A stretch of DNA of 64,000 nucleotides from Pristiophorus japonicus (lineage: Eukaryota). Location of the stretch: assembly GCF_044704955.1 (NCBI RefSeq), contig NC_091982.1, positions 166,532,001 through 166,596,000 of the forward strand, written 5' to 3'. The number at the start of each line of letters is the position of its first letter. Within the stretch, counting starts at the first letter, position 1. The notes beneath the pieces were generated by a model, which was not told the origin of the DNA, ran no database searches, and worked only from the letters and a program-made list of their open reading frames with translations. A program made the position numbers and the translations under genes. Shown here in pieces: positions 1 through 64,000 of the stretch.

Positions 1-3000
1 GCTCGACCTGGAAGCCCGTCTCGGTCAAGTCGTCCAGGACCCGGCCCTGCGGACGGTGTACGAAGCGAAGAAGGCCGCGCTGAAGGACCTGCAGCTCGTC
101 GGGTCCCGAGGCGCGTTCGTGAGGTCGCGGATCCGGTTCCTGCGGGATCTGGACCGCGGCTCCCCCTTCTTCTACTCGCTGGAAAAAAGGCAGAGTGTCC
201 GTAAGCAGCTCTTGACGCTGCTGGCCGACGACGGCTCTCTCGTCTCGGATCCGGAGGGCGTCAACAACAGGGTCCGTGAATATTACGGGGCTCTGTTCTC
301 TCCGGATCCGTCCAGCGAGGAAGCGCGTAGAGTTTTGTGGGAGGACCTGCCGAAGGTCGGCCCGGAGGGCGCCGAAAATCTGGAAGCTCCGCTAAGCCTG
401 GCGGAGCTGACCGGTGCCCTCGCCCGGCTCTCGAGGGGAAAATCCCCGGGGCTGGACGGGCTGACCGTGGAGTTCCACAGGGCGTTCTGGGACGTCCTGG
501 GGGGCGACTACGCGCGGGTCCTGGGGGAAAGTCTGGCGACCGGGGAGATGCCCCTCTCTTGGCGCAGGGCAGTCATCGTCCTGCTGCCTAAGAAGGGCGA
601 TCTCCGCCTCCTTAAGAACTGGCGCCCGGTCTCCCTCCTCAGCACGGACTACAAAATCTTCGCCAGGGCGATGTCTGCTCGCCTTGGTGCCGTGCTGGAC
701 CACATGATCCACCCCGACCAGTCATACACGGTCCCGGGCCGGACAATCCACGACAACATCCATCTGGTCCGGGACCTCATCCATTGCTCCCAGGAGGCTG
801 GTCTGTCGGTCGCCTTCCTATCCCTCGACCAAGAGAAGGCGTTCGACAGGGTGGATCACGACTATCTGCTCGGAACTCTGCGCGCTTTCGGGTTCGGGAC
901 GCATTTCGTCGCCCGGATCCGACTTTTGTACGCCGCCGCGGAGTGTCTGATTAAGGTTAACGGGTCCTTGACGGCGCCCCTTCGCTTTAGGAGAGGGGTG
1001 CGCCAGGGATGCCCCATGTCCGGCCAGTTATACGCCGTTTGCGTGGAGCCTTTCCTGCGCCTCTTGCGGACGAGGTTGACGGGACTGGCTCTGCAAGGGC
1101 CGGGCGTGGAGGTCGTCCTCTCGGCTTACGCCGATGACGTGCTCCTCGCGGTAGAGGATCCCGCTGACCTGCGGAGGATGCGTGAGTGCCAGGAGATTTA
1201 CTCGGCCGCGTCCTCCGCCAGGATCAACTGGGAGAAATGTTCCGGACTCCTGGTGGGTCAGTGGCGGGTGGACTCCCTGCCGGAGGAGCTCAGGCCTTTT
1301 GCCTGGAGCACGACCCATCTCCTCTATCTGGGAGTCTACCTTAGCCCCGACGAGGAAGCCTGGCCGGCGAACTGGCAGGAGCTGGAGGCCAAGGTCGCCG
1401 CTCGCCTAGGGCGCTGGACAGGACTGCTCCGAGTGCTGTCCTACAGGGGTCGAGCGCTAGTCATAAACCAGCTGGTGGCCGCAATGCTGTGGTACCGGCT
1501 GGTCACTTTGACCCCTCCCCCTGCGTTTGTCGCCAAGATACAGAAGAAGCTGGTGGACTTCTTCTGGAACAACAGGAAGCACTGGGTCTCTGTCGCGGTC
1601 TTGAGTCTCCCGCTTGAGGAGGGCGGTCAGTCGTTGGTGTGCGTCAGCGCCCAGCTCGCGACTTTCCGTCTTCAGACCCTGCAGAGATACCTTTACGTCG
1701 AGCCCCCTCCTAGGTGGTGTGCTCTGGCGAGGTATTTCTTCCGCCAGCAGCTCGACCTCAATTATGACACGCAGCTCCTGTTTGTGAACTTGGGGGGTGC
1801 CAGGACCGCCCTCCGGGAGCTGCCTGTCTTTTACAGGGAACTCATCAGGGTCTGGAACAAAGTCTCCACCAAGCGCAGCTCTCCGCCGGCTGGAGTGGCG
1901 GCCGTCCTGCAGGAACCGCTGCTCGGGAATCCGTACCTCCACGGCCGAGGCTTCATGTGGCGGTCGGAAGAGAGGGCTGTGGCTGGTGAGGTGACCAGGG
2001 TCAGGGACCTGCTCGATGGCGGAGGAGCGGGCTGGATGGCGCCAGTCACGCTGGCGCGGCGCCTAAATTCTGCCAACGTCCGCCGCGCGGCCGATGCCAT
2101 CGAGTCGCTAAAAACAGCTCTGGGCCCTGACTCCGTTAGGTGTATCGAGGAGGCTCAAGCACGTGGGGAGATCCCGTCCGAACTGACCCCCGTCCGGACG
2201 GAATTCCTCATCGGCGCCAAACCCCGGAACCTCCCTCGGGGGCCGGCGCCTCACAACTTGAGCCGCCTCGGGGAAATCCCCTCCGTGCCTTTCAGTTCCG
2301 CGCGGAGGGGTTTCCTGTACGGGCTGCTCCTGCACACCCTCAACTTTGCCATCCTCGCCGGCCGTCCGGACACGCCATGGCGTACCATCTTGCCGTCCGG
2401 AGGAGGCGGGGGTCCCCGATGGAGGGCACTCTACGCAGGGGTCCTCCCACTATTCATCGGGGACTTGGCCTGGAGGGTGGTGCACGGAGCAGTGCCGTGC
2501 AACAAATTTTTAAGCCGGTTCACGGACTCCCAGGCCGCCTGCAATTTCTGCGGTCTGGAGGAGTCCGTGTTCCATGTTTTTATTGAATGCACGAGGTTGC
2601 AGCCCCTGTTTTATTATTTGAAGGGGCTGCTCCTGAAATTCTGGCTGCACTTCAGTCCCACTCTCCTGATCTTTGGGCACCCTGTGCGGAGGGGAGCGGG
2701 TAGGTCCGAGGGCCTCCTCGTAGGACTGCTCCTGGGCACGGCCAAGGGTGCCATCAGCCGGTCCAGGCAGCGGGCGGTCGAGGGGGTCGTTCAACCTGAC
2801 TGCCTGCCTCTCTTCCGCTCTTACATCCGATCCAGGGTGTCCTTGGAGATGGAGCACGCGGTGTCCACCGGTACGCTCGCGGCCTTCCGCGAGAGGTGGG
2901 CACCGGAGGGTCTGGAGTGCATCATCACGCCCGGCAACCAAATTTTAATTTGATTTTACGTTTTAAAGTTAATTTGTTTTAAATGCCGGTGCTTTTAGTG

Positions 3001-3204
3001 TCCCCTTCCCTTTTATAGGGGGCACTGGGGAAAAATTGTGATTTTAGTGCCCAAAAAAAAAAAACAAAAAAAAAAGAAAAAACACAAAAAAAAAACACAA
3101 AAAAGGGGGAAAAAAAAAAAATGGGCCTTGTAAATGTCTGGAGTGTCACCCAGGTCGGGTGGCACCGTTTAATGTTTTATGTTTTCACAGATAAACTCAA
3201 AAGA
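1..3204 (+). mobile_element. Tx1-clade non-LTR retrotransposon, copy 1 (5' part outside window)
   Basis: Near-identical to 7211-10408 (offset 7210 in ORF2). Contains the 3' part of ORF2 and a 3' UTR ending ...GATAAACTCAAAAGA. Confidence 0.95.
2..2953 (+). CDS. Tx1 ORF2, partial (RT plus C-terminal CCHC)
   Basis: Open frame with RT motifs KSPGLDG, NWRPVSLL, LDQEKAFDRV, GVRQGCPMSG, YADD, and CNFC..H...C near the C-terminus. Confidence 0.95.
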   Translation, partial: LDLEARLGQVVQDPALRTVYEAKKAALKDLQLVGSRGAFVRSRIRFLRDLDRGSPFFYSLEKRQSVRKQLLTLLADDGSLVSDPEGVNNRVREYYGALFSPDPSSEEARRVLWEDLPKVGPEGAENLEAPLSLAELTGALARLSRGKSPGLDGLTVEFHRAFWDVLGGDYARVLGESLATGEMPLSWRRAVIVLLPKKGDLRLLKNWRPVSLLSTDYKIFARAMSARLGAVLDHMIHPDQSYTVPGRTIHDNIHLVRDLIHCSQEAGLSVAFLSLDQEKAFDRVDHDYLLGTLRAFGFGTHFVARIRLLYAAAECLIKVNGSLTAPLRFRRGVRQGCPMSGQLYAVCVEPFLRLLRTRLTGLALQGPGVEVVLSAYADDVLLAVEDPADLRRMRECQEIYSAASSARINWEKCSGLLVGQWRVDSLPEELRPFAWSTTHLLYLGVYLSPDEEAWPANWQELEAKVAARLGRWTGLLRVLSYRGRALVINQLVAAMLWYRLVTLTPPPAFVAKIQKKLVDFFWNNRKHWVSVAVLSLPLEEGGQSLVCVSAQLATFRLQTLQRYLYVEPPPRWCALARYFFRQQLDLNYDTQLLFVNLGGARTALRELPVFYRELIRVWNKVSTKRSSPPAGVAAVLQEPLLGNPYLHGRGFMWRSEERAVAGEVTRVRDLLDGGGAGWMAPVTLARRLNSANVRRAADAIESLKTALGPDSVRCIEEAQARGEIPSELTPVRTEFLIGAKPRNLPRGPAPHNLSRLGEIPSVPFSSARRGFLYGLLLHTLNFAILAGRPDTPWRTILPSGGGGGPRWRALYAGVLPLFIGDLAWRVVHGAVPCNKFLSRFTDSQAACNFCGLEESVFHVFIECTRLQPLFYYLKGLLLKFWLHFSPTLLIFGHPVRRGAGRSEGLLVGLLLGTAKGAISRSRQRAVEGVVQPDCLPLFRSYIRSRVSLEMEHAVSTGTLAAFRERWAPEGLECIITPGNQILI

Positions 3205-3222
3205 GTTTCATGCACAAGGACC
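3205..3222 (+). repeat. 18-bp target-site duplication between the tandem Tx1 copies (CR1-derived)
   Basis: GTTTCATGCACAAGGACC, identical to 10409-10426 and 29270-29287. Confidence 0.9.
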
Positions 3223-4140
3223 AATTGTGGAGCTGTGGAGGCGTGTCCTGCTCAGTTGGAGCTGTGAGCAGTGAGGAGAGCAGCTAGCAACTTTTGCTCC
3301 TGCCTGGAGAGCCCTGAGACCAGCCCAGGAACAGAAGGAAGGAAGGGGTTTCACCACCAACTTTACCCAGAGGGAGAGGAGGAGAACAGAAAACTTTGCA
3401 ACAACTTCATCATTCTGCAAGGAGTTGGAGAGAGGGGGAAAAACCAACAACATCCAGTGTGGAAGGAGGGAGACTCTACTATCTCTACAGGTGGGTGTGG
3501 GTGCATTTCCCCAAACAGACTTTGTTGTATCGGTGGGGGGAGGAAAGAAGACCACTGAGGGCCGGAACATCGCGGGGGGTGTGTGTGTGTGTGGTAGTGT
3601 GCGTGGGGGCCGTGCTTACAACTAGGCCCCCCCCACAATTGGAACCCCCCCCACCCCCCACATTTGCCTAGCCTGGGATAGCTGGAGCTACCAGGCTGAA
3701 GATTGTTGTTTTTCTTAAAACTCCCAATTAAAGATCGTTGGGAGTGCCTGGTGGCTCCAGCTACCCCAGGTGAAGACATCTTCTCCCCCCACCTGAAGAC
3801 CACCCCAAGGACTTTTGTGTTTTTGCCATCTGGGGAGTGCACCCACCCACAGCTGCGAGGGGAGACCTGCCCTCGCAGTCCCCCCCACCCCTTCCCACCC
3901 CCCTCTCTCTTTCTCTGCTACTCTGTTTCTCCCCTCTCTCTCTGAGGCCTCTTCCTTCCAAATTTGCAAAAAAAAACCAATTAAGACAACTGAGCAGAGG
4001 GAGCAAGGCCTCTCCCCAATTGTCAACGAGGGGAGAGGTACCTCGTTAAGAGCTCCTCTGCTCAGTTAATTTACGAGGCCAATTAAGACCTTTAAGGCCT
4101 GTGACTTTGGGGTGGGTGTAGCCCTTAAAGGGACCCCGTG

Positions 4141-6237
4141 ATGGCGACCCCATCCACGCCGGTGGCAGGGCCAGCAAGGACGTATGCGCAGGTGGCAACC
4201 GCTTCCACGGCCCCTCCTGCGCCACCCGCTGCCCTGCCACCATTTAGGTTAATTACTAGAAAACACGGGGTCAAGAGCTACACTCACCCCACAATGACCA
4301 TCGAGGAGTGCGTGCGGGCGATGGCTGGGGTAGTCGGCCCCTCGGCCATTGTCGCAGCCTCCAAGATGTCTGGGAAGGCCGTGTTCTTCCTGGGGTCGGA
4401 GCGGGCGGTGTCCCTGGCCCTTGAAAAGGGGCTCACGGTGGGCGGGACGTTCCTGCCGGTGGACCCTCTCGAGGCCACCGCGCAGAGGGTCATCATTTCA
4501 AACGTCCCGCCCTTTGTTCCCGCTGAGCTCCTCCTCCCTCACCTACACCAACTGGGGGAGGTAAGGTCGGGGATCAACCCCATACCGCTCGGCCTCAGGG
4601 AGAACAGCCTGCGCCACGTGTTCTCCTTCCGCCGCCAGCTCTTTGTCCGGCTGGCGCGGGAGGAGACGACGGAGGGGAGCTTTAATGTGGTGCACGAGGG
4701 GACTGCCTACCGCGTCTTCTGGACGTCGGACGGCGTGCGGTGCCATGCCTGTAGGGAGGTGGGGCATGTTCGTAAGAACTGCCCCGCCTCCAAGGCCGCC
4801 AAACCACCGAAGGCGGCCAAAGCTGGCACCGCCGCCACCCCTCCCCCTAGTTGCGTCCGCGTGCCGGGAGCCATGGGTGCGCGGGCATCGTCGGAGGCCT
4901 TTGTTTTCAGGGCCTCCGGCGGGGGGGAGGGAGAGCGTTCGACCGGAAAGAAGGCGCGGAAGAAGGCGAAACATCTCGAGGCGGGTCCCCTCGGTGCGCC
5001 GGAAAGTCTGACCACCGCGCTCAGCCCAACCCAGTCACCGGCGAGCGCGGGGTGCCCCGAGCCCGTGCCCGGGCCCTTGAATACCACCACAGAGGGGCCC
5101 AGGCGCGGGCAAGAAAAGGAAAAGGGGGGGGCGGAGCGGGAGGCCTCGGCAGACATGGAGGTCTCCCTGACTCCGCGCGCCCCCAGGAACAAAAAGAGGC
5201 ACCGCCCCAATGAGGCGGAGGGGGAACAACATCCCTCCGCGGAGGAGTCGGTGCCCGCCGCGTATCCCGCGTCCCCCACCAGCGCCCCCAAATTGCGCTG
5301 CAGGCGCGAGGAGTCTTTCCCCGGGGAGGGTGAGACAGTTGAGGCTGCCCAGCCTCTGCCTCCCGGGGATGGAGTGGAAGATCTGCCTGTCGTGGGGGGC
5401 GTGGGGACCGCGGAGGAATGCGTAGCCGCCGGGCCGGGCGTCCCGGGGACTGAGGCGGGCGAGGCCGAAAAGGCCGAACCTGAGCCCGCCCAGCTATTAC
5501 CCAACTTCCCCCGGGATTTGCTCGACCCGGCAGAGAATGAAACAAATAATTATGACACTGTAGATGCTGGGCCGGGGGGTGGCAGCGGGGAGGGGGAGGA
5601 ACACCCACCCTCGCCCCTTACTTTGGAGCTGGAGCACTTGGAGGGCCTGGGGATTTCCTATGGCCGGGTCTCTCCTTGTTCTCCGGTTCCTGGGGCGGAG
5701 GGGGAACCCCTTCCGCTGTCATTTCCCGACCCAGCACCATTTTTAAAAGAGCCCAGTGGGGACTCCTCTGCCGACGATCCTGGGGGTGGGATCGGGGCAG
5801 TGCCAGGGCCGGTTGGAGCGGCCGGTTCATTTGCCGTACCTTGTGCGGTCGATGGGCCGGCTGCTGGCGGCCACCTCCCGGAGGAGGACGGGGACTCGGT
5901 GGGGGTCGCGGGTGAAGACCTAGAGACCACCGCCAGTGAGGCGGTGGATCTACTCGCGGCCGCCGCTGAGGCCCTCCTCGTTCCTGCAAAGGAACTCCGG
6001 GACTTTTTGGCCCAGAGCCGGGGTCGCCGCGACCAAGCCCGACTGGCCCTGGAAAAATGGTCCGAGCCGGAGCTGATCAAGGGGTCCGTCCGCGCCGCCG
6101 TTAAAACCTTGGCCGCGGGCGGGCCCTTGACAAAGGAGCAGCACCTTGAGCTGCGCGAGCTCGAGGGACTCCTCGCTGGGCTGCGGAGGGAGCGGAGTTC
6201 AACAAAAGACTCCGCTCCCTCCCCCACAATAGGTTAA
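4141..6237 (+). CDS. Tx1 ORF1 nucleic-acid-binding protein (RRM-like N-terminus, zinc knuckle, long low-complexity tail)
   Basis: ATG at 4141. Tx1 ORF1-type motifs IVAASKM and RVIISNVPPFV, knuckle CHACREVGHVRKNC, then a Pro/Glu/Gly-rich region. Confidence 0.9.
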   Translation: MATPSTPVAGPARTYAQVATASTAPPAPPAALPPFRLITRKHGVKSYTHPTMTIEECVRAMAGVVGPSAIVAASKMSGKAVFFLGSERAVSLALEKGLTVGGTFLPVDPLEATAQRVIISNVPPFVPAELLLPHLHQLGEVRSGINPIPLGLRENSLRHVFSFRRQLFVRLAREETTEGSFNVVHEGTAYRVFWTSDGVRCHACREVGHVRKNCPASKAAKPPKAAKAGTAATPPPSCVRVPGAMGARASSEAFVFRASGGGEGERSTGKKARKKAKHLEAGPLGAPESLTTALSPTQSPASAGCPEPVPGPLNTTTEGPRRGQEKEKGGAEREASADMEVSLTPRAPRNKKRHRPNEAEGEQHPSAEESVPAAYPASPTSAPKLRCRREESFPGEGETVEAAQPLPPGDGVEDLPVVGGVGTAEECVAAGPGVPGTEAGEAEKAEPEPAQLLPNFPRDLLDPAENETNNYDTVDAGPGGGSGEGEEHPPSPLTLELEHLEGLGISYGRVSPCSPVPGAEGEPLPLSFPDPAPFLKEPSGDSSADDPGGGIGAVPGPVGAAGSFAVPCAVDGPAAGGHLPEEDGDSVGVAGEDLETTASEAVDLLAAAAEALLVPAKELRDFLAQSRGRRDQARLALEKWSEPELIKGSVRAAVKTLAAGGPLTKEQHLELRELEGLLAGLRRERSSTKDSAPSPTIG

Positions 6238-6263
6238 GGTAGAGGTTGCACTATGCTTTTGCC

Positions 6264-9200
6264 ATGAAGATAACCATAGCCAGCCTCAACATCAACGGCG
6301 GCAGAGGGGCACGCCGTAGATTTGACAATTTTTCGCTCCTGCGGGAGGGGAAATATGCGGTGTGCTTCCTGCAAGAAACCCACACCGTTCCGGGAGACGA
6401 AGCCACGTGGCTCCTGGAATGGCAAGGAGAGGTCCGCATGAGCCACCTCACCGCCATTTCTAGTGGGGTGGCCATCTTGCTGGGCCCGCATTTTCAGCCG
6501 GAAATCTTGAGGGTCGAGGAGCCCGTGCCAGGCCGCTTGCTGCACGTAACGGTTCGCCTGGGGGACGTGCCGCTCCATCTCGTGAACGTGTACGCCCCTC
6601 ATCCCGGCCCGCAGCAAACGCGCTTCTTTGAAGAGGTGTCCGCTCTTCTTGGCTCCGTCGACGTCGGCGACTGCATTGTCCTCGGGGGGGATTTTAACTG
6701 CACCCTCGAGGCGAGGGACCGCTCCGGTGCCCCGCAGTGCATGACGGCGATGGAGAAGTTGAGGGACCTGGTCGGGTCCTTCGACTTGGTGGACGTCTGG
6801 CGAAATCTCCACCCCGACTCCAGCGCCTTTACTTGGGTGAGGCCTGGAGTTGGATGGTCTAGAGTCGACCGCCTTTACGTGTCTCGGGCGTACGTTTCCT
6901 GCGTCCCGGCGGCCTCCATGCGGCCGGTGCCGTGTTCGGACCACCACCTGGTGTGGGCGGAGCTCGCTTCGCTCCGCGCGAGGACGGGGTCCGCGTACTG
7001 GCACTTTAACAACCGGCTGCTGGAGGACGTGCGGTTCCAGGACTCGTTCCGTCGATTCTGGTCCGACTGGAGAAGGAAGCAGGGGGGCTTCCCCTCCTTG
7101 AGGCTATGGTGGGACGTGGGCAAGGCTCACGTCCGCGTCTTCTGTCAAGAGTACGCGAGGGGGTCGACCAAGAGGCGGGCGGCCAGAGTCGGGCGCCTAG
7201 AAAAAGAGGTGCTCGACCTGGAAGCCCGTCTCGGTCAAGTCGTCCAGGACCCGGCCCTGCGGACGGTGTACGAAGCGAAGAAGGCCGCGCTGAAGGACCT
7301 GCAGCTCGTCGGGTCCCGAGGCGCGTTCGTGAGGTCGCGGATCCGGTTCCTGCGGGATCTGGACCGCGGCTCCCCCTTCTTCTACTCGCTGGAAAAAAGG
7401 CAGAGTGTCCGTAAGCAGCTCTTGACGCTGCTGGCCGACGACGGCTCTCTCGTCTCGGATCCGGAGGGCGTCAACAACAGGGTCCGTGAATATTACGGGG
7501 CTCTGTTCTCTCCGGATCCGTCCAGCGAGGAAGCGCGTAGAGTTTTGTGGGAGGACCTGCCGAAGGTCAGCCCGGAGGGCGCCGAAAATCTGGAAGCTCC
7601 GCTAAGCCTGGCGGAGCTGACCGGTGCCCTCGCCCGGCTCTCGAGGGGAAAATCCCCGGGGCTGGACGGGCTGACCGTGGAGTTCCACAGGGCGTTCTGG
7701 GACGTCCTGGGGAGCGACTACGCGCGGGTCCTGGGGGAAAGTCTGGCGACCGGGGAGATGCCCCTCTCTTGGCGCAGGGCAGTCATCGTCCTGCTGCCTA
7801 AGAAGGGCGATCTCCGCCTCCTTAAGAACTGGCGCCCGGTCTCCCTCCTCAGCACGGACTACAAAATCTTCGCCAGGGCGATGTCTGCTCGCCTTGGTGC
7901 CGTGCTGGACCACATGATTCACCCCGACCAGTCATACACGGTCCCGGGCCGGACGATCCACGACAACATCCATCTGGTCCGGGACCTCATCCATTGCTCC
8001 CAGGAGGCTGGTCTGTCGGTCGCCTTCCTATCCCTCGACCAAGAGAAGGCGTTCGACAGGGTGGATCACGACTATCTGCTCGGAACTCTGCGCGCTTTCG
8101 GGTTCGGGACGCATTTCGTCGCCCGGATCCGACTTTTGTACGCCGCCGCGGAGTGTCTGATTAAGGTTAACGGGTCCTTGACGGCGCCCCTTCGCTTTAG
8201 GAGAGGGGTGCGCCAGGGATGCCCCATGTCCGGCCAGTTATACGCCGTTTGCGTGGAGCCTTTCCTGCGCCTCTTGCGGACGAGGTTGACGGGACTGGCT
8301 CTGCAAGGGCCGGGCGTGGAGGTCGTCCTCTCGGCTTACGCCGATGACGTGCTCCTCGCGGTAGAGGATCCCGCTGACCTGCGGAGGATGCGTGAGTGCC
8401 AGGAGATTTACTCGGCCGCGTCCTCCGCCAGGATCAACTGGGAGAAATGTTCCGGACTCCTGGTGGGTCAGTGGCGGGTGGACTCCCTGCCGGAGGAGCT
8501 CAGGCCTTTTGCCTGGAGCACGACCCATCTCCTCTATCTGGGAGTCTACCTTAGCCCCGACGAGGAAGCCTGGCCGGCGAACTGGCAGGAGCTGGAGGCC
8601 AAGGTCGCCGCTCGCCTAGGGCGCTGGACAGGACTGCTCCGAGTGCTGTCCTACAGGGGTCGAGCGCTAGTCATAAACCAGCTGGTGGCCGCAATGCTGT
8701 GGTACCGGCTGGTCACTTTGACCCCTCCCCCTGCGTTTGTCGCCAAGATACAGAAGAAGCTGGTGGACTTCTTCTGGAACAACAGGAAGCACTGGGTCTC
8801 TGTCGCGGTCTTGAGTCTCCCGCTTGAGGAGGGCGGTCAGTCGTTGGTGTGCGTCAGCGCCCAGCTCGCGACTTTCCGTCTTCAGACCCTGCAGAGATAC
8901 CTTTACGTCGAGCCCCCTCCTAGGTGGTGTGCTCTGGCGAGGTATTTCTTCCGCCAGCAGCTCGACCTCAATTATGACACGCAGCTCCTGTTTGTGAACT
9001 TGGGGGGTGCCAGGACCGCCCTCCGGGAGCTGCCTGTCTTTTACAGGGAACTCATCAGGGTCTGGAACAAAGTCTCCACCAAGCGCAGCTCTCCGCCGGC
9101 TGGAGTGGCGGCCGTCCTGCAGGAGCCGCTGCTCGGGAATCCGTACCTCCACGGCCGAGGCTTCATGTGGCGGTCGGAAGAGAGGGCTGTGGCTGGTGAG

Positions 9201-10163
9201 GTGACCAGGGTCAGGGACCTGCTCGATGGCGGAGGAGCGGGCTGGATGGCGCCAGTCACGCTGGCGCGGCGCCTAAATTCTGCCAACGTCCGCCGCGCGG
9301 CCGATGCCATCGAGTCGCTAAAAACAGCTCTGGGCCCTGACTCCGTTAGGTGTATCGAGGAGGCTCAAGCACGTGGGGAGATCCCGTCCGAACTGACCCC
9401 CGTCCGGACGGAATTCCTCATCGGCGCCAAACCCCGGAACCTCCCTCGGGGGCCGGCGCCTCACAACTTGAGCCGCCTCGGGGAAATCCCCTCCGTGCCT
9501 TTCAGTTCCGCGCGGAGGGGTTTCCTGTACGGGCTGCTCCTGCACACCCTCAACTTTGCCATCCTCGCCGGCCGTCCGGACACGCCATGGCGCACCATCT
9601 TGCCGTCCGGAGGAGGCGGGGGTCCCCGATGGAGGGCACTCTACGCAGGGGTCCTCCCACTATTCATCGGGGACTTGGCCTGGAGGGTGGTGCACGGAGC
9701 AGTGCCGTGCAACAAATTTTTAAGCCGGTTCACGGACTCCCAGGCCGCCTGCAATTTCTGCGGTCTGGAGGAGTCCGTGTTCCATGTTTTTATTGAGTGC
9801 ACGAGGTTGCAGCCCCTGTTCCATTATTTGAAGGGGCTGCTCCTGAAATTCTGGCTGCACTTCAGTCCCACTCTCCTGATCTTTGGGCACCCTGTGCGGA
9901 GGGGAGCGGGTAGGTCCGAAGGCCTCCTCGTAGGACTGCTCCTGGGCACGGCCAAGGGTGCCATCAGCCGGTCCAGGCAGCGGGCGGTCGAGGGGGTCGT
10001 TCAACCTGACTGCCTGCCTCTCTTCCGCTCTTACATCCGGTCCAGGGTGTCCTTGGAGATGGAGCACGCGGTGTCCACCGGTACGCTCGCGGCCTTCCGC
10101 GAGAGGTGGGCACCGGAGGGACTGGAGTGCATCATCACGCCCGGCAACCAAATTTTAATTTGA
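6264..10163 (+). CDS. Tx1 ORF2: APE endonuclease, reverse transcriptase, CCHC
   Basis: MKITIASLNING, LQETH, NVYAP, GGDFN, RVDR, SDH (APE endonuclease); RT with YADD; CNFCGLEESVFHVFIEC. No stops in 1299 codons. Confidence 0.97.
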   Translation: MKITIASLNINGGRGARRRFDNFSLLREGKYAVCFLQETHTVPGDEATWLLEWQGEVRMSHLTAISSGVAILLGPHFQPEILRVEEPVPGRLLHVTVRLGDVPLHLVNVYAPHPGPQQTRFFEEVSALLGSVDVGDCIVLGGDFNCTLEARDRSGAPQCMTAMEKLRDLVGSFDLVDVWRNLHPDSSAFTWVRPGVGWSRVDRLYVSRAYVSCVPAASMRPVPCSDHHLVWAELASLRARTGSAYWHFNNRLLEDVRFQDSFRRFWSDWRRKQGGFPSLRLWWDVGKAHVRVFCQEYARGSTKRRAARVGRLEKEVLDLEARLGQVVQDPALRTVYEAKKAALKDLQLVGSRGAFVRSRIRFLRDLDRGSPFFYSLEKRQSVRKQLLTLLADDGSLVSDPEGVNNRVREYYGALFSPDPSSEEARRVLWEDLPKVSPEGAENLEAPLSLAELTGALARLSRGKSPGLDGLTVEFHRAFWDVLGSDYARVLGESLATGEMPLSWRRAVIVLLPKKGDLRLLKNWRPVSLLSTDYKIFARAMSARLGAVLDHMIHPDQSYTVPGRTIHDNIHLVRDLIHCSQEAGLSVAFLSLDQEKAFDRVDHDYLLGTLRAFGFGTHFVARIRLLYAAAECLIKVNGSLTAPLRFRRGVRQGCPMSGQLYAVCVEPFLRLLRTRLTGLALQGPGVEVVLSAYADDVLLAVEDPADLRRMRECQEIYSAASSARINWEKCSGLLVGQWRVDSLPEELRPFAWSTTHLLYLGVYLSPDEEAWPANWQELEAKVAARLGRWTGLLRVLSYRGRALVINQLVAAMLWYRLVTLTPPPAFVAKIQKKLVDFFWNNRKHWVSVAVLSLPLEEGGQSLVCVSAQLATFRLQTLQRYLYVEPPPRWCALARYFFRQQLDLNYDTQLLFVNLGGARTALRELPVFYRELIRVWNKVSTKRSSPPAGVAAVLQEPLLGNPYLHGRGFMWRSEERAVAGEVTRVRDLLDGGGAGWMAPVTLARRLNSANVRRAADAIESLKTALGPDSVRCIEEAQARGEIPSELTPVRTEFLIGAKPRNLPRGPAPHNLSRLGEIPSVPFSSARRGFLYGLLLHTLNFAILAGRPDTPWRTILPSGGGGGPRWRALYAGVLPLFIGDLAWRVVHGAVPCNKFLSRFTDSQAACNFCGLEESVFHVFIECTRLQPLFHYLKGLLLKFWLHFSPTLLIFGHPVRRGAGRSEGLLVGLLLGTAKGAISRSRQRAVEGVVQPDCLPLFRSYIRSRVSLEMEHAVSTGTLAAFRERWAPEGLECIITPGNQILI

Positions 10164-10408
10164 TTTTACGTTTTAAAGTTAATTTGTTTTAATTGCCGGT
10201 GCTTTTAGTGTCCCCTTCCCTTTTATAGGGGGCACTGGGGAAAAATTGTGATTTTAGTGCCCAAAAAAAAACAAAAAAAAAAAAGAAAAAACACAAAAAA
10301 AAACACAAAAAAGGGGGGAAAAAAATGGGCCTTGTAAATGTCTGGAGTGTCACCCAGGTCGGGTGGCACCGTTTAATGTTTTATGTTTTCACAGATAAAC
10401 TCAAAAGA

Positions 10409-10426
10409 GTTTCATGCACAAGGACC
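10409..10426 (+). repeat. 18-bp target-site duplication, continuing directly into CR1 sequence
   Basis: GTTTCATGCACAAGGACC followed by CCCAGGTCCCTCTGCACCGC, the antisense of CR1 AVQRDLGVLVHE. Confidence 0.9.
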
Positions 10427-11390
10427 CCCAGGTCCCTCTGCACCGCAGCATGTTGTAATTTCTCCCCATTCAAATAATATTCCCTTTTACTGTTTTTTTT
10501 TCCCCCAAGGTGGATGACCTCACACTTTCCGACATTGTATTCCATCTGCCAAACCTTAGCCTATTCGCTTAACCTATCCAAATCTCTTTGCAGCCTCTCT
10601 GTCCTCTACACAACCCGCTTTCCCACTAATCTTTGTGTCATCTGCAAATTTTGTTACACTACACTGTCCCCTCTTCCAGGTCATCTATGCATATTGTAAA
10701 CAGTTGTGGTCCCAGCACCGATCCCTGTGGCACACCACTAACCACCGATTTCCAACCGGAAAAGAACCCATTTATCCCGAATCTCTGCTTTCTGTTCGCC
10801 AGCCAATTCTCTATCCATGCTAATACATTTCCTCTGACTCCGCGTACCTCTATCTTCTGCAGTAACCTTTTGTGTGGCACCTTATCGAATGCCTTTTGGA
10901 ATTCTAAATACACCACATCCATCGGTACACCTCTATCCACCATGCTCATTATATCCTCAAAGAATTCCATAAATTAGTTAAACATGATTTCCCCTTCATG
11001 AATCCATGCTGCATCAGCTTGATTGCACTATTCCTATCTAGATGTCCCGCTATTTCTTCCTTAATGATAGTTTCAAGCATTTTCCCCACTACAGATGTTA
11101 AACTAACCAGCCTATAGTTACCTGCCTTTTGTCTGACCCCTTTTTTAAACAGAGGCGTTACATTAGCTGCTTTCCAATCTGCTGGTACCTCCCCAGAGTC
11201 CAGAGAATGTTGGTAGATTATAACGAATGCATCTGCTATAACTTCCACCATCTCTTAATACCCTGGGATGCATTTCATCAGGACCAGGGGACTTGTCTAC
11301 CTTGAGTCCCATTAGCCTGTCCAGCACTACCCCCCTAGTGATAGTGATTGTCTCAAAGTCCTCCCTTCCCACATTCCTGTGACCAGCAAT
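10409..11390 (-). mobile_element. CR1 LINE fragment (RT region), host of the Tx1 array
   Basis: Minus-strand frames give [56 protein letters not shown], with frameshifts. Confidence 0.92.
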
Positions 11391-15282: not shown

Positions 15283-16559
15283 GTATTTTTTTTACTTTCC
15301 CTTTTTTAAATAATAAGCCTATTCTAAAATTTCCACTGCTAATCTTACTTTAAATACTTTGACCTCACTCCTCCTATGAATGTCCCCACTCAGATTGTCA
15401 ATTTTGGTTGAGGAACCTACACTGAAAAAATTGACTTTACATTGGCAGAAAACTGGTCCCAAAGGCTAGGTTGGGTAGGTTTCTTCTGCCAATCAGATGT
15501 CAAATTGTCACAGTTGACATAAATACAACCAGAACAAATTTTGCCAATTTTGAAGCTTCAAACCGTTGAGAGCTATTGCAAAATGAGTAGTCTGCAAAGC
15601 ACCAGGGGGCCGAAATTGCCCCTTTTTTAAAGAGCCATTACCACCTAAAAGATGCGATTACGGGGCGGAAATTAGTTTCATCTCAGTCGGGGCAGCCTCC
15701 CTGATGATCAGGTCATCGCCCTCATGATTTCTTCAGGTGGAGAAGGTGAGCACCCAACTCCCCCGACATCCGCCCCGCTCCTCGGAGCACGGCAATAAAG
15801 ACATCCTCATAGCACGCACTACCTGGTCCCTGCCCTGGAAGTGACATTGCCCAGAAATCGTCGATCGAACACTTGTCGGTGCCAGCAACAGATTTTTCTG
15901 TTGCAGTAAAATCTGCAATCTAAACCGCCAGCAGTATTTAAAGGCGCAATGCGGCTCGCACCATTGTTGTCGGCAAAATTTTTATTCTGGGTTGAGGCTT
16001 TGAACGTTTTACCTCTAATTTGGGCTTCAACGATTACTGGGCCTCACTTTGCACAGCTTCCAGTATCGAATCTTGCTCCAAGAACTAGCATTAGCAGAGT
16101 AGGCCACTGTTTGCAAATAATGGGCTCAGTCCTGGCAGCGGAACGCCTCCTGCACATTGTGCGTGGCACGGTGGATCGCAGCAGAGAGCGGCAACACCAA
16201 CTACAGATACAGAGGCAGCGTGAGAGGGACAGAGATAGGATGAGTCACCGAGATGGAGATAGCCATATACCTGCATAAAGAGAAGGATGTGGGGAAGGAC
16301 GTGAAGAAGGGCATGCAGTGAGGAGGAGGGTCGGAGACAAAGACCCCCAGAACCAGAGAATGAGGGACATGGAGAGGAGAAGGCAACATCAACAGCAGGC
16401 GGATGTGTGCCAGCACCAGGATGCAGAGGGTCAAGAGCAGCATGGCCAGGAGGTAGAAGGGGATGAGGAAGGTGGCAGAGCAAGACACAGTCACAGACGT
16501 GATGGCGGAAGGCCCTATGTGCAAGGGTCTTCAGACAACAGGTTTCCTACATGGACCTC

Positions 16560-19340
16560 AATAGTAAAGGATGAATTCCGAACAATAGTGAGAAAGGATA
16601 TTGGCTCAGAAAATCAAGATGTAGAATCAGTCTGGATGGAGCTAAGGAGCACCAAGGGCCAGAAACCATTGGTGGGAGTTGTCTATAGGCCTCCAAACAG
16701 TAATGGTAATGTAGAGGACGGTATCAAACAGGAAATTAGAGATGCATGTAACAAGGGTACTACAGTAATCGTAGGTGACTTTAATCGACATATAGACTGG
16801 TCAAACCAAATTAGTAATAATACTGTGGAAGATGAATTCCTGGAGCGTGTACAAGATGTTTTTTTAGACCAGTATGTTGAGGAGCCTACTAGGGAACAGG
16901 TTATCCTAGATTGGGTATTGTGCAATGAGAAGGGGTTAATTAACAGTCTTGTTGTGCGGGGTCCTTTAGGGAAGAGTGACCATAACATGATTTAATTTTT
17001 TATTAAGATGGAAAGCGAAGTAGTCCAATCCAAAACTAGGGTCCTAAATCTAAACAAAGGAAACTGCGAAGTTATGAGGAATGAAATGGCTATGATATAT
17101 TGGGAAGATTCATTAAAAGTCATGACTGTGGATTGGCAATAGCTAATATTTAAGGAATTAATGCATGAATTGCAATAGTTATACATTCCTTTCTGGCATA
17201 AAAACACACAAGAAAAAGTGGCCCAACCATGGCTAACAAAAGAAATTAAGGATAGTGTTAGATCCAAAGAGGAGTCATACAAAGTTGACAGAAAAAGTAG
17301 CAAGCCTGAGGATTGGGAGCAGTTTGGAAAAAAGGACCAAGAGATTGATTGAGGGGGAAAATAGAGTATGAGAGTAAACTTGCAAGGAACATAAAAACTG
17401 ACTGCAAAAGTTTTACAAGTACAAAAAAAGAAAAATATTAGTGAAGACAAATTAGTAGGTCCTTTACAGTCAGAAATGGGGAACAAGGAAATGGCAGAAC
17501 AATTAAATAAATACTCGGCTCTGTCTTCACGGAAGAGGACACAAATAACGTCCTAGAAATGCTAGGGAACCAAAGGTCGAGTGAGCAAGAGGAATTAAAG
17601 GAAATGATTATTAATAAGAAAATAGTGCCGGAGAAACTAATGGGACTGAAGGCCGATAAATCCTCAGGGCTTGATGATCTGCATCCCAGAGTACTAAAAG
17701 GGTGGATGGAAATAGTGGATGCAGATTGGAGGGTGGCAAATGTAACCCCACTATTTAAAAAAGGAGGGAGAGAGAAAACAGGGAACTAGAGACCGGTTAG
17801 CCTAACATCAGTAGTAGGGAAAATGCTAGCATCTATTATAAAGGATATGATAATGGGACACTTGGATTATATCAATGGGATAAGACAAAGTCAACATGGA
17901 TTTATGAAAGGAATTTCGTGTTTGACAAACCCACTGGAGTTTTTTGAGGATGTAACTGATAGAATAGATAAGGGAGAACCAGTGGATGTAGTGTATTTGG
18001 ATTTTCAGAAGGCCTTTGATAAAGTCTCACATAAGAGGTTAGTGTGCAAATTAAAGCACATAGGATTGGGGGTAATCTACTGGCATGGATTGAAAATTGG
18101 TTAACTGACAGGAAACTGAGAGTAGGAATAAACGGGTCTTTTTGGGGATGGCAGGCAATGACAAGTGGGGTATCAGTGCTTGGGCCCCAGCTATTCACGA
18201 TATATATATCTGGATGAGGGAACCAAATGTAATATTTTCAAGTTTGCTGATGACACAAAACTAGGTGGGATTGTGAGTTGTGAGGAGGTGCTGCAAGACG
18301 ATTTAGATAGGTTGAGTGAGTGAGCAAACACATGGCAGATGCAGTATAATGTGGATAAATGTGCAGTTATCCACTTTGGTAGGAAAAAAATAAAGACAAA
18401 GTATTATTTAAATGGTGATAGCTTGGAAAATGTCGGTGTACAAAGGGACCTGGGTGTCCTTGCACACCAGTCATTGAAAGTAAAGATGCAGGTGCAGCAA
18501 GCAGTTAGGAAGGGAAATGGTATGTTGGCCTTCATTGTAAGAGGATTTGAGTACAGGAGCAAGAATGTCTTACTACAGTTATACAGAACCTTGGTGAGAC
18601 CGCAGCTGGAGTATTGTGTGCAGTTTTAGTCTCCTTACCTAAGAAAGGATATACTTGCCATAGTGCAGCGAAGGTTCACCAGACTGATTCCTGGGATGGC
18701 CTTACTGTCGTATAGAAACATAGAAACATAGAAAATAGGTGCAGGAGTAGGCCATTTGGCCCTTCGAGCCTACACCACCATTCAATAAGATCATGGCTGA
18801 TCATTCACCTCAGTACCCCTTTCCTGCTTTCTCTCCATATCCTTTGATCCCTTTTGCCATAAGGGCCATATCTAACTCCCTCTTGAATATGAGGAGCGAT
18901 TGGGTCGACTAGGCCTGTATTCACTAAAGTTTAGAAAAATGAGTGGGGATCTCATTGAAATGTATAAAATTCTGACTGGGTTGGACAGACTGGATGCGGG
19001 GAGGATGTTTCCGCTGGCTGGGAAGTCTAGAACAAGGGGTCACAGTCCCAGGATACGGGGTAGGAAATTTAGAACCGAGATGAGGAGAAATGTTTTCACT
19101 CAGAGGGTGGTGAACCTGTGGAGTTTTCTACCACAGAAGGCTGTGGAGGCCAAGTCACTGAATATATTTAAGAGGGAGATAGATAGATTTCTAGACACAA
19201 AAGGCATCAAGGGACATGGGGGGAAAAGCGGGAATATGATGTTGAGATAGAGGATGAGCCATGATCATATTGAATGGCGGTGCAGACTCGAAGGGCCGAA
19301 TGGCCTACTACTGCTCCTATTTTCTATGTTTCTATGTTTC
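16560..19340 (+). mobile_element. CR1 LINE, 5'-truncated (EN to 3' tail)
   Basis: VVYRPP, GDFN, SDH endonuclease motifs; RT motifs with stops and frameshifts; ends in (TTCTATGT)n. Confidence 0.93.
18713..18887 (-). mobile_element. Short CR1 3' tail inserted antisense into a CR1
   Basis: (AGAAACAT)n...GGAGTAGGCC interrupts host CTGTCG-TAT-GAGGAG, with TAT on both sides. Confidence 0.85.
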
Positions 19341-20330
19341 AATGATGACCAGTGTCTGCAGAGACTGTGATTCAGGAAAAATATGGTGTCAGAGCTGTGC
19401 AATCTCCTCCAGCCAGACCTGCAGCCTGAAACAAGGGTGAAGATGGCTCTATCAGTGGCATCAAAGGTCACCATCGCCCAGAATTTCTATTCCACTAGAC
19501 CTTTCCAAGGAGCCACAGCAGACATCTCCAACTGCTCCCAATATGCTGTGTATTGCTCCATCCATCAGGTCACAGATGCTCTGTACAAGAGGAAGAGAGA
19601 TTACATCTCCTTTGCAATGACCAGAAAGAAGCAGTTGGAGCGCCCTACTGGCTTCTTCAGGATATCGGGCTTCCCCAGGGTTCAGGGCGCTTTAGACTGC
19701 AGCCATATGGCATTGAGGGCACCGCACAATCCAAAGATCTTCCGAAATCAGAAGGGATTCCACTCACTCACTGTCCAGTTGGTGTGTGACCACAACCACC
19801 CAATCATGGTCGTTGATGCCCGGTATCCTGGCAGCAGCCGCGATGCTTTCATGCTGCGGCAGACCCGTGTGCCAGGTGTGTTTGATGCATCAAATGAAGG
19901 TCGCGGCTGGCTCCTAGGAGACACTGTGCACTTGGCTGCTGAGTCCCCTTCGCAACCCCACCATACCTGCGCAGCAATCTTACAACGAATGTCATAATTT
20001 GGCCAACAGGTGCATCACTGAATAGACAATCGGAATCTTTAAACAGTGGTTCCACTGCCTGGATCGCTCAGGAGGAGTGCTGCATTACTCACCTGACTGG
20101 GTGTCTATATTTGTCATCGTCAGCTGCATGCTTCACAACCTGCCAATCAAGAGGGCACAGCCATTGGCCGACGATGTACCAGTAGCACCTGAGGAGGAGG
20201 CGCAGGAGGAGGACGTGCAGTAGGAGGAGGAGGCGCAGGAGGAGGAGGAGAAGGAGGTGCAGGAGGTGGCCTCGCCATCCCGATCCTGCAAGAGAATTCC
20301 GAGACCGTCTCATTGATGCGCGTTTCCACT
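19341..20330 (+). pseudogene. HARBI1-like Harbinger DDE transposase, disrupted
   Basis: GFPRVQGALDCSHMAL, FRNQKGFHSLTVQLVCD, ARYPGSSRDAF, WLLGD; frameshifts and an acidic tail. Confidence 0.9.
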
Positions 20331-26107: not shown

Positions 26108-27145
26108 TCAGGCAAAGCGATCATTGATGAGCTCCTGACCTAAGGCTCTTGCAGCTATCATGCCACCATGGGCCCTTTCATGCAGTCTACAGTGGGGCGG
26201 GGGCATGGCTTCAGCGTCAGCCTGAATGTCTGGGCCGATGTCAGCATCCGCCTCTTTGTTCTCCTCTTCCTCTCTCTGGTGAGGTGGGCTGTCAGACTCA
26301 TCAGGCAATTCTTGTCCCCTCCTGATAGCCAAGTTGTGCAGCATGGAGCACACCACCACGAATTGAGCTACCTGCTCAGAGTGGTATTGGAGCTCACCTC
26401 CTGAGTGTTCCAGGCATCTAAAGCGCTGCTTCGGCTCTCCAATCGTTTTCTCCATGATATTGCGAGTTGCTCTGTGACTCTCGTTGTATGGCTTTTCGGC
26501 TTCGGTGGGGGTGTCATGCAGGGGAATCATCAGCCAGGTGGCGAGGCCATATCCTTTGTCACCAAGCATCCAGCATTGACCTTGTGGCTCATTGTTAAAC
26601 AAATCAGATACAGTGCTCTCACGCAAGATGTGAGCACCATGGATGCTGCCCGGAAATTGAACATTCACTGCCAGTATAATTTGCTGGTGGTCGACAACCA
26701 GTTGGACATTCAGGGAGTGGAATCCCTTGCGGTTCCTGAAAACCTCTGCATCCTGAAAAGGTGTCCGCATCACGATGTGCGTACAGTCTATTGCTCTCTG
26801 CACCTTGGGGAAGTTTGCAATTCTGGAGAATCCTAGAGCCCTCTCACTTTGTGCCTCTCTGGTCATAGGGAAGCTGATCAAGTCCCTCCTGCGTGCGTAC
26901 AGGGCTTCAGTGACCTGTCTAATGCAGCGATGTGTGGCATGCTGAGAAAGTCCGCAAATGTCTTCAGCTGTGGCCTGAAAATAACCTGAGGCACAGAACG
27001 ACAGTGCCACTGTGATTTTGACCTCGACGAACAGTGCAGTACTGATAGTGCTGGAAGGCTGCAGATCTGCCCTTATCAGCTGGCATACCTCAGTGATAAC
27101 CTCTTTGTGGAAGCGCAGTCTCCGATGGCAGGTGGTGTTGGGCAA
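26108..27145 (-). CDS. HARBI1-like Harbinger transposase (345 open codons; 5' end probably frameshifted)
   Basis: AIDCTHI, FRNRKGFHSLNVQ, LGDKGY, IMEKTIG, CSMLHN. The usual HDA reads HGA here. Confidence 0.85.
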   Translation of the reverse strand: MPNTTCHRRLRFHKEVITEVCQLIRADLQPSSTISTALFVEVKITVALSFCASGYFQATAEDICGLSQHATHRCIRQVTEALYARRRDLISFPMTREAQSERALGFSRIANFPKVQRAIDCTHIVMRTPFQDAEVFRNRKGFHSLNVQLVVDHQQIILAVNVQFPGSIHGAHILRESTVSDLFNNEPQGQCWMLGDKGYGLATWLMIPLHDTPTEAEKPYNESHRATRNIMEKTIGEPKQRFRCLEHSGGELQYHSEQVAQFVVVCSMLHNLAIRRGQELPDESDSPPHQREEEENKEADADIGPDIQADAEAMPPPHCRLHERAHGGMIAARALGQELINDRFA

Positions 27146-28570: not shown

Positions 28571-30975
28571 GAACATAAGAACATAAGAAATAGGAGCAGG
28601 AGTAGGCTATATGGCTCCTCGAGCCTGCTCCGCCAATCAAGAAGATCATAGCTGACCTGATCATGGACTCAGCTCCACTTCCCTGCCTACTCCCCATAAC
28701 ACTTTACTCCCTTTTCGCTCAAAAGTCTGTCTATCTCCACCTTAAATATATTGAATGACCCAGCCTCCACAGCTCTCTAGGGCAGAGAATTCCATAGATT
28801 TACAATCATCTGAGAGAAGAAATTTCTCCTCATCTCTGTTTTAAATGTGCGGCCCCTCATTCTAAGACTATGTCCCCTAGTTTTAGTTTCACCTATGAGT
28901 GGAAATATCCTCTCTGCATCCACCTTGTCGAGCCCTCTCATTATCTTATAAGTTTCAATTAGATCACCTCTCATTCTTCTGAACTCCAATGTGTATAGGC
29001 CCAACCTACTCAACCTATCTTCATAAGTCAACCCCCTCATCTCCGGAATCAAACTAGTGAACCTTCTCTTAACAGCCTCCAATGCAAGTATATCCTCCCT
29101 TATATATGGAGACCAAAATTGTATGCAGTACTCTCGGTGTGGCCTCATCAATACCCTGTACAGTTGTAGCAGGACTTCTCTGCTTTTATACTCTATCCCC
29201 CTTGCAATAAAGGCCAACATTCCATTTGCCTTCATGATTACTTGCTGTAGCTGCATACTAACTTTTTGTGTTTCATGCACAAGGACCCCCAGATCTCTCT
29301 GTACTGCAGCACTTTGCAATTTATAATTTACTTTTCTATTATTTCTGCCAAAGTGGATCGTCTCACAGTTTCTCACATTATTTTCCCAGTTTCTTAAACG
29401 ATAAGGGGATAAGGGGTTATGGGGAGGGGGCAGAGAAGTGGAGCTGAGTCCATGATCAGATCAGCCATGATCTTATTGATTGGCGGAGCAGGCTCGAGGA
29501 GCCGTATGGCCTACTCCTGCTCCTATTTCTTATGTTCGGATGTTCTTATACGCCATCTGCCAAATTTTTGCCCACTCTATATCCCTTTGTAGATTTTTTG
29601 TGTCTTCCTCACAATTTGCTTTCCTACCCATCTTTGTATCATCAGCAAACTTGGCTGCATTGCACTTGGTCCCTTCATCCAAGTCATTAATATAGATTGT
29701 AAATAGTTGAGGACCCAGTACCGATCCCTGCAGCACACTAATAGTCACCGCTTGCCAACTGGAAAATTACCCATTTATCCCGACTCTCTATTTTCTGTTA
29801 GTTAGCCAATCCTCTATCGATGCTAATATATTATCCCCAACTCCGTGAGCTTTTACCTTGTGCAGTAACCTCTTATGTGGCACCTTAACGAGTGCCTTCT
29901 GGAAATCCAAATACACAACATCCACTGGTTCCCCCTTACCTATCCTCGTTACATCCTGAAAGAACTCCAGCAAATTTGTTAAACATGATTTCCCTTTCAT
30001 AAAACCATGCTGACTCTGCTTGATTGAATCATGCTTTTCTAAATGTCCCACTACTGCTTCCTTAATAATGGACTCCAGCATTTTCCCAACGACAGATGTT
30101 AGGCTAACTGGTCTATAGTTTCCTGCTTTTTGTCTGCCTCCTTATTTAAATAGGGGCGTTAGATTTGTGGTTTTTCAATCTGCTAGGACCGTCCCAGAAT
30201 CATGGGAATTTTGGTAGATTACAACCAATGCATCCACTATCTCTGCAGACACTTCTTTTAAGATCCTAGGATGTAAGGCATCAGGTCCAGGGGATTTTGT
30301 CCGCCTTTAGTCCCATTATTTTACCAAATACTACTTCATCAGTGATAGTGATTGTATTTAGTTCCTCCCTACCTATAGTCCCTTGATTATCCACTATTGG
30401 GATGTTTTAGTGTCTTCTACCGTGAAGACCGATATAAAATATTTGTTCAATGTCTCTGCCGTTTCCCTGTTCTCCATTATTAATTCCCCAGTCTCATCCT
30501 CCAGGGGACCAACATTTACTTTTGCCACTCTTTTCCTTTTTATGTACCTGTAGAAACTCTTACTGTTTTTATATTTCATGCTAGTTTACTTTCATAATCT
30601 ATCTTCCCTCTCTCAATCATTTCTTTAGTCGTTCTCTGCTGGCTTTTAAAAATTTCCCAATTCTCTGGTCTCCCACTAGTCAATGACACATTGTATGCCT
30701 TTGTTTTCAATTTGATACCCTCCCTTATGTCCTTAGATAACCATGGATGCTTATCCCTTTCTCTTTCCTTCTCATTGGGATATATTTTTGATGCGAGTTA
30801 TGAAATATCTCCTTAAATGTCTGCCACTGCTCATCAACCGTCCCATTCTTTAGTCTATTTTCCCAGTCCATTTTAGCCAACTCTGCCCGCATACTTTTGT
30901 AGTCTCCTTTATTTAAACTTAGGACCCTGGTTTGAGAGCCAACTTCTCACCCTCCAGCTGAATTTGAAATTCAAC
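28571..30975 (-). mobile_element. CR1 LINE inserted in Gypsy A; carries an uninterrupted Tx1 target 18-mer
   Basis: (AAGAACAT)n tail at the left end; [39 protein letters not shown]. Confidence 0.93.
29390..29549 (+). mobile_element. Short CR1 3' tail inserted antisense into a CR1
   Basis: GGCCTACTCCTGCTCCTATTTCTTATGTTC, opposite to the host orientation. Confidence 0.82.
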
Positions 30976-63500: not shown

Positions 63501-64000
63501 AACCGGCGAGTTTTGGGATCCATACGGGTCCAGCCCAGTAGCAGCGATCCGGGACAAAGGGGGGACACAAGGGAGTGTAGAGGTAGCATTGGCCCCGGAA
63601 TTGAGGAAAGTCCAGGCACAGGATCCGGTCCTCAAGGTTGTACTGGAGCAGCTGGCTAAGGGAGAAAAGGTAGGCCCATTCGGGGTAGCGGGCATTACTT
63701 TAAAGGAGGGAATGCTTTTCAGGGGGGATCAGTGGGTAGTTCCAGAACAGCACCAGAGGGAATTCCTCCAGTTGGCCCATGGGGCCCAGGAGCGGGACAC
63801 CCAGGACCGGAGGCTACCTGGCAGAGGGTAGAACAGGCAGGGTGGTGGCCGCAACTGAGGGAGGATGTCCGCGATTTTTGCGCAGACTGGTGTGCACAGC
63901 GAACAACCCTGATCCCCAGAAAAGAAAGGTTCCCATGGGACACATGAGAAGGTTGAGAGACCATGGCAGTCGGTCCCGCAAAGGGGGGGTTACAAGTACT
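60600..64000 (+). mobile_element. Degraded retrovirus-like element (gag end, PR, RT, two RNase H domains, IN start); runs off the window
   Basis: CFGCGKPGHWRKDC, YLVDTRAS, LPKGFHNSP, YVDD, IYVDGSS/AQHAEL/KVKAH/GNQKADELAK, and IN H..GH..WWP. No 5' LTR seen. Confidence 0.85.
61810..63831 (+). pseudogene. pol segment: RT, tether (degenerate RNase H) and retroviral-type RNase H
   Basis: 673 open codons, bounded by upstream stops and a frameshift in the integrase zinc finger. Confidence 0.85.

Follow-up and report, generated by a model that had tools for sequence, protein, structure and literature searches.

An intact Tx1-clade retrotransposon very probably targets one coding site of CR1 elements in Pristiophorus japonicus

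Targets described for retrotransposons of the Tx1 clade include a piggyBac-derived transposon, Mariner, Harbinger, long terminal repeat (LTR) elements, U2 and microsatellites (PMC4494074, PMC4640811; general background in PMC1919474 and PMC6719617; all articles are cited for the portions of their text that were available). Tx1L of Xenopus laevis (YTX2_XENLA, P0004) inserts sequence-specifically into another transposable element (PMC4494074, PMC1950540), and the crocodilian families Tx1-Mar, Tx1-8_Crp / Tx1-4_AMi and Tx1-9_AMi prefer Mariner, LTR retrotransposons or Harbinger, form tandem insertions and carry small-RNA sequence or are fused to it (Kojima 2015, PMC4494074). R1 elements of Drosophila form arrays that stack on the left side, with copies spaced by a 14-bp duplication and new insertions entering this duplication at the 5′ end of the resident copy (Stage and Eickbush 2009, PMC2718515). 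Here, a stretch of 64,000 nucleotides (nt) from Pristiophorus japonicus (the window; contig NC_091982.1, positions 166,532,001 to 166,596,000, forward strand) was analysed, for which an original prediction made from the sequence alone had proposed that a Tx1 element targets a coding motif of CR1. The window carries copies of a young, intact Tx1-clade long interspersed nuclear element (LINE) that lies antisense at one site in the reverse transcriptase (RT) coding region of CR1 at thousands of loci, often in head-to-tail stacks, very probably as a result of sequence-specific target-primed reverse transcription.

The present element resembles Tx1L in having two open reading frames (ORFs) and in sharing 49% identity over the whole (100%) of ORF2, for which Tx1L is the best named full-length match, and 45% in the endonuclease; it differs in its target, a LINE coding region with a 14-bp duplication rather than the DNA transposon Tx1D, and in an endonuclease hairpin loop that is three residues shorter. 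Its target is also different from those of the Tx1-Mar / Keno group (U2 or Mariner). The crocodilian families are old (85-87% to consensus), and the available text on them mentions neither CR1 nor any other LINE as a target (PMC4494074), whereas the present family is intact and its copies within an array are 98-99% alike. R1 belongs to its own clade and targets 28S rRNA, and inheritance of a neighbour's 5′ end was not found in the available part of that account (PMC2718515). No LINE-targeting Tx1 was found in full-text searches of the open literature, which extended neither to paywalled articles nor to Repbase, Dfam or the supplementary Tx1 target lists of PMC4494074. A 2026 survey of vertebrate CR1 reports a CR1-group content of 22-34% in sharks and rays and leaves Tx1 unmentioned in its available text (PMC13343379). 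Tx1 elements that target transposons are already known, and what appears to be new here is the LINE coding target, the likely recent target switch and the proposed two-part signal.

The window was found to contain the right end of an array of three full-length copies that starts in upstream DNA at window -11176 (Table 1), and the two copies within it are 99.3% identical over 3.2 kb. Of 21 full-length copies, 14 keep both long ORFs intact, among them the three copies of the present array. By its predicted proteins the element is assigned to the Tx1 clade (L1 group) of non-LTR retrotransposons, with a separate ORF1 followed by an ORF2 that encodes an APE endonuclease, an RT and a C-terminal zinc motif. 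The catalytic motifs of the endonuclease are complete, the C-terminal zinc-binding motif gave a weak Pfam match below the cut-off, and the 698-amino-acid ORF1 gave no Pfam match; local matches of 69-70% to ORF2 were seen in one stingray protein and one horn shark protein. A fixed 3′ end, variable 5′ truncation and a target-site duplication, the marks of target-primed insertion, are all present. The host carries the ORF2 motifs FADDTK ... DLGVLVH ... LEGVQRRFTRLIP and a 3′ tail in its translations, from which we take it to be CR1; the 3′ part of this host is found in upstream DNA, on the left side of the array and outside the window.

In order to define the target, the junctions of the array were compared with the 18-nt motif on which the original prediction was based. 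This motif is present in the window only at 3205, 10409 and 29270, all exact matches with up to 3 mismatches allowed (0.08 expected by chance), and the predicted layout was borne out: the first occurrence is followed after 3222 by the 5′ end of a full copy, and the second runs after 10426 into antisense CR1 ORF2 reading ...LQHAAVQRDLGVLVHE. The left junction upstream of the window, which the same prediction had proposed to recover, contains the expected 3′ part of CR1, in antisense, as ...GCACCTGCAAATTAATTTTTTGGGA TTCATGCACAAGGA|CCAATT, and the right junction reads ...AAAAGAGT|TTCATGCACAAGGA CCCCCAGG. The duplicated sequence is CR1 sequence as proposed, but its length is 14 bp and not 18, the leading GT of the 18-nt motif being the 3′ end of the element and the trailing CC its first two bases; a left junction of ...TTTTGT GTTTCATG had been predicted and CR1 ...TTTTTTGGGA TTCATGCACAAGGA|CCAATT was found instead, excluding an 18-bp duplication. 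The two flanks of the array read in one CR1 frame (...RDLGVLVHE | SQKINLQV...), and Tx1 lies antisense within the DLGVLVHE codons of CR1 ORF2. Among 33 distinct loci with both junctions, whose inserts measure 9 to 2,753 nt, the run identical at both junctions was 14 nt in 11 loci, 15-17 nt in 10, 12 nt or less in 6 and at least 25 nt in 6; the 15-17 nt runs are chance extensions and those of at least 25 nt are tandem pairs with the same truncation. Since copies inserted off target end in GAGT and carry duplications of their own (11-15 bp, starting TTCA or TTCC), the 14-nt sequence belongs to the target, and the possibility that it is part of the element was excluded. Insertion does literally interrupt CR1 ORF2, as had been claimed; the host in the window was, however, already 5′-truncated and frameshifted, and loss of CR1 function is therefore unsupported here. 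CR1 as a harmless and abundant landing site, the 'safe harbour' of the original prediction, is the likelier reading.

The specificity of insertion was then counted genome-wide as exact-pattern matches in the 5.9-Gb P. japonicus genome. There were 6,986 exact 3′ junctions that continue into CR1, 16,267 3′ ends with the target motif directly behind them and 3,643 5′ ends, set beside 25,825 empty CR1 sites of the preferred type (GGGA, named by the bases upstream of the site) and 10,232 of the GTGT type, so that about one fifth of exact preferred sites (6,986/32,811) are occupied. A sample blind to the flanks was obtained by a search with the ORF2 stop region (26,890 matches), from which 88 3′ ends were read at the first 100 listed places, the internal units of some arrays not being included. 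The young 3′ untranslated region (UTR) was present in 58 of these ends, and 53 of the 58 lay at the CR1 site or were stacked on copies there, well above the >20% of flanks used to call a Tx1 family target-specific (PMC4494074); neither a prevalence of unrelated flanks nor a motif at every 3′ end, which the original prediction had named as evidence to the contrary, was seen. Among 30 ends of one subfamily, 27 carried the motif, with CR1 next to it in 4 cases and a further copy in 23, and the remaining 3 were off target. Each of the 30 full-length 5′ ends examined was preceded by CR1 or another copy, and CR1 was present on both sides within 1.5 kb at 18 of 30 loci. In four sequencing runs from other organisms, contigs covered ORF2 in all four and empty CR1 alleles were found in three, and none bridged a junction or covered 10278-10385, holes that by themselves prove nothing. 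One off-target copy (L109:1-1735) has an inverted 5′ part, as in twin priming, with another repeat between.

Occupied and empty sites differ upstream of the insertion point. Of 512 left junctions, the 100 listed were typed by eye as 69 GGGA, 15 GTCA, 8 GGGT, 5 GTGA and 3 GTGT, the GTGT type being under-used about ninefold (Fisher p = 3e-7). The CR1 at 29270, proposed earlier as an uninterrupted target, does contain the 18-nt motif but is of this rarely used type, with TAGCTG upstream. In one collection of left junctions, 4 of 47 rows were non-CR1 and were excluded. CACCTG was present at -24..-19 in 34 of 36 occupied CR1 left junctions versus 0 of 12 empty GTGT-type sites, which mostly have TACCTG. 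The same hexamer, 18 bases upstream of the inferred nick, is shared by all three targets of the wider family, namely this CR1 site, a second CR1 family (CACCTG, CACATG) and an LTR-like repeat (CACCTG), and in the last it was perfect at 8 of 12 occupied sites (by eye; 2 more with deletions were excluded) versus 3 of 15 empty sites. Of 8 off-target insertions of the young lineage, 6 have the looser CANNTG at a distance of 17-19 nt upstream, versus a 1.9% background. The upstream hexamer is a preference and not a rule.

The second and third targets belong to older lineages, which account for 30 of the 88 ends in the flank-blind sample (20 in the LTR-like repeat, 2 in the other CR1 family, 8 elsewhere or with an unreadable end). 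The older-lineage end AAAA(T/G)AGT|TGTAGAGCTGTTG was counted at 9,018 junctions versus 764 exact empty sites, in a repeat of about 270 bp (TGTAATGTA...TACATTACA) that resembles a solo LTR; an exact 5-bp duplication was seen by eye in 4 of 15 cases and no internal domain was seen, and two matches 9.9 kb apart that were considered as an LTR pair did not look like one. A third lineage (L132, L165, L217) enters this other, distant CR1 family, and the codon boundary that it hits is the same (VHR|T versus VHE|S). A tree was built from the last 400 nt of ORF2 of 57 copies, excluding those with fewer than 330 aligned nt, with midpoint rooting. Its 39 CR1-targeting rows are short-branched and form a clade (98/94) together with three further rows, one each of the LTR-targeting, second-CR1 and off-target kinds, nested in a ladder of long-branched LTR-targeting copies. 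From these branch lengths under the midpoint root, the order of targets would be LTR to CR1, and the young lineage is likely derived from older copies targeting the solo-LTR-like repeat, with the CR1 site probably taken up recently. Comparing one long copy per older lineage, the endonuclease is 92-93% and the RT 92% identical to that of the window; a faster divergence of the endonuclease, considered as a sign of target switching, was absent (218/237 versus 231/250 for RT). Nine endonuclease changes are private to the young lineage (G15E, R17H, D21N, I65T, G74A, R83G, H113Q, C159S, M163I). In APE-type enzymes the NING, SGV, YAP and DFN motifs face the DNA, and several of the nine changes adjoin them. 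The hairpin loop TWVRPGVGWS, a region that matters for target reading in chimeras of L1 and Tx1L (PMC1950540), is identical across the lineages with three different targets.

No poly(A) tail was found at the 3′ end of the element. Instead, 94 of 100 distinct junctions have an ACTC-(A-rich loop)-GAGT tip and the remaining 6 are truncated inside the hairpin; the predicted stem extends into the TT of the target. The prediction is based on the preservation of the ACTC/GAGT stem while the loops vary, and not on the folding z-score, which was not significant (-1.9 and -1.2). Some inserts consist of only the last 9-12 nt of the element, and the same tip was found joined to 5S rRNA (L091), tRNA-Asp (L082) and an internal piece of the element (L086), which suggests that copying starts on the tip and that template jumps are possible at the stem. 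At L091:1375-1508 a whole 5S rRNA, and at L082:1401-1508 a whole tRNA-Asp with trailer, lie in the same CR1 site, each joined to the last 10-11 nt of the element. At L078 (about 680-725), also in this CR1 site, a truncated copy carries at its 5′ end a fused tRNA-like 3′ half, presumably Lys; ARAGORN made no tRNA call there.

Taken as sequence-specific target-primed reverse transcription, insertion would proceed as follows. The ORF2 protein may read a two-part signal, CACCTG at -24..-19 and TTCA just after the nick, and would nick the bottom strand at GGGA^TTCATG; reverse transcription would begin at the RNA's 3′ hairpin, which has a stem extending into the target, and the top strand would be cut 14 bases downstream. 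The left junction would then retain both signals and the right junction would lack CACCTG, so that later copies would enter on the left, where the new cDNA would often pair with the resident copy and adopt its 5′ end. Several points weigh against this reading or its parts. Five of the 58 young-lineage copies in the flank-blind sample are off target, and of 935 exact subfamily ends only 739 continue with GTTTCATG, although 6 of 10 retrieved from the remainder are tandem junctions with a variant duplication. Three of four occupied GTGT-type sites lack CACCTG (TATCTG, and TACCTG twice), and the under-use of this type could come from its age or from chromatin. Among off-target sites, CANNTG is missing at 2 of 8 from the young lineage and at 2 of 2 from the older ones, and is itself a post hoc generalisation (strict CACCTG/CAGGTG 3/8; at L134 the position of the nick is known to within one base). 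Nick positions were deduced from junctions, and the junctions sampled are those of the places listed first on a single contig, some of them duplicated loci that are nearly identical. Sets of almost identical insertions that have a host truncation in common (L066, L067, L069, L072 and L097, L098, L099, L101, L105) lie in the first 3.3 Mb of contig C1 and are probably segmental duplications near the contig end.

The strongest rival keeps the targeting but lets the RNA set the bases after the nick, transcripts passing GAGU into the duplicated target and pairing with the nicked primer, so that the target is inherited through the RNA. This is somewhat improbable, but several findings suit it: the predicted terminal hairpin needs 1-2 target bases, off-target sites start TTCA/TTCC in 8 of 9 young-lineage cases and TGTA/TGTG in all 5 older-lineage cases whose end could be read, and both the constancy of the endonuclease hairpin loop and the even divergence of endonuclease and RT fit it. 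Against it, the young lineage differs from the two others by the nine endonuclease changes, the Tx1L endonuclease alone nicks its own target almost exclusively (PMC1950540), and the RNA 3′ end is itself a prediction, with the proteins compared at one long copy per older lineage. A combination, in which a protein-read CACCTG anchor 18 bp upstream of the nick acts together with read-through RNA bases pairing with the primer, is a slightly more doubtful proposal; if true, the family could move from an LTR to two CR1 families with its endonuclease almost unchanged, and retargeting would be possible by editing the RNA 3′ end.

Array growth was examined in four arrays comprising 25 copies. At least 100 nt from the 5′ junction were common to 12 of 17 adjacent full-length pairs versus 0 of 155 between-array pairs, whereas 100 nt of the 3′ end were common to only 4 of the 17. 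At L130 the repeated 14-nt sequence contains 8 nt of the resident tRNA-Asp copy on its right, which indicates that later insertions entered on the left; L170, whose duplication also includes resident sequence, agrees with this, and left-side entry fits the upstream hexamer because CACCTG survives at the left junction only. At L178, seven short copies are truncated at a single point but have 3′ UTRs that differ. It appears that new copies enter on the left and take their 5′ end from the neighbour; against this, 5 of 17 neighbours have no 5′ end in common and X6-X8 resemble plain duplications. By the order deduced from L130 and L170 the third copy of the window's array is inferred to be the first inserted. 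That targeting is real and the arrays arose by tandem duplication (unequal exchange) with 3′-end conversion is improbable as a general account: common 5′ junctions between neighbours would suit it, as would the identity of X7 and X8 over 7,198 nt, but 13 of 17 neighbours have different sequences in their final 100 nt, full-length and truncated copies are mixed in arrays, and the duplications at L130 and L170 take in resident sequence. That one or a few Tx1-in-CR1 chimeras were co-amplified by CR1 retrotransposition or segmental duplication, without targeting, is scarcely credible, since the near-identical duplicate loci (L066/067/069/072; L097-L105) and the 92-99% likeness of most host CR1 flanks (37/40) are outweighed by about 30 insert lengths each with its own 5′ junction, which contradict it by their independent truncation points, by several 3′ UTR variants at the same site, by five occupied CR1 upstream types and by insertions at the corresponding codon boundary of a second, distant CR1 family.

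Table 1 Features of the window, with positions counted from its first letter
Feature	Position	Strand	Details
Second of three full-length Tx1 copies, 3′ 3.2 kb	1..3206	+	Copy start at window -3981; ORF2 open to 2953; end ...ACTCAAAAGAGT
14-bp target-site duplication TTCATGCACAAGGA between copies	3207..3220	+	CR1 sequence
Third Tx1 copy, full-length	3221..10410	+	7,190 bp
ORF1	4141..6237	+	698 amino acids (aa); one CCHC zinc knuckle at aa 201
ORF2	6264..10163	+	1,299 aa; APE endonuclease aa 6-227; RT 512-761, YADD at 692
Predicted 3′-terminal RNA hairpin AAACTC-AAAA-GAGTTT	10397..10412	+	Last 2 bases are target; poly(A) tail absent
14-bp target-site duplication, right junction	10411..10424	+	Inferred bottom-strand nick between 10410 and 10411
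Host CR1 ORF2, 5′ part (RT region)	10411..11380	-	FADDTK ~75 codons before site; 5′-truncated, frameshifted
Empty site in second CR1 type (GTGT)	29248..29285	+	TAGCTG in place of CACCTG at -24..-19; type rarely used
Further CR1 fragment	16279-17552		Endonuclease included
DDE_Tnp_4 (Harbinger-like) transposase remnants, three	19371-19997, 26108-27190, 51995-52666
Decayed Gypsy-like gag/pol stretches	23011-24051, 31604-35272, 37870-41694		Integrase match at 40789-41694
Low-complexity purine/pyrimidine tandem repeat	46834-47848		~1 kb; source of spurious long ORFs
RT fragment of another LINE	49421-50113		Presumably RTE-like
Pol-like frame	61807-63831		RT, RT-linked RNase H-like domain and second RNase H; retrovirus-like or unusual LTR-element layout

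With this family a LINE coding region joins the known targets of site-specific retrotransposons, and does so at scale. One genome holds lineages that are about 92% identical in ORF2, have different targets (an LTR-like repeat and two CR1 families) and include intact young copies, so that the change of target, and the shares of protein and RNA in it, become testable by exchanging nine amino acids and a few bases of the RNA. In addition, the arrays preserve a record of how 5′ junctions are formed, and this record, together with target switching, bears on gene insertion with site-specific retrotransposons.

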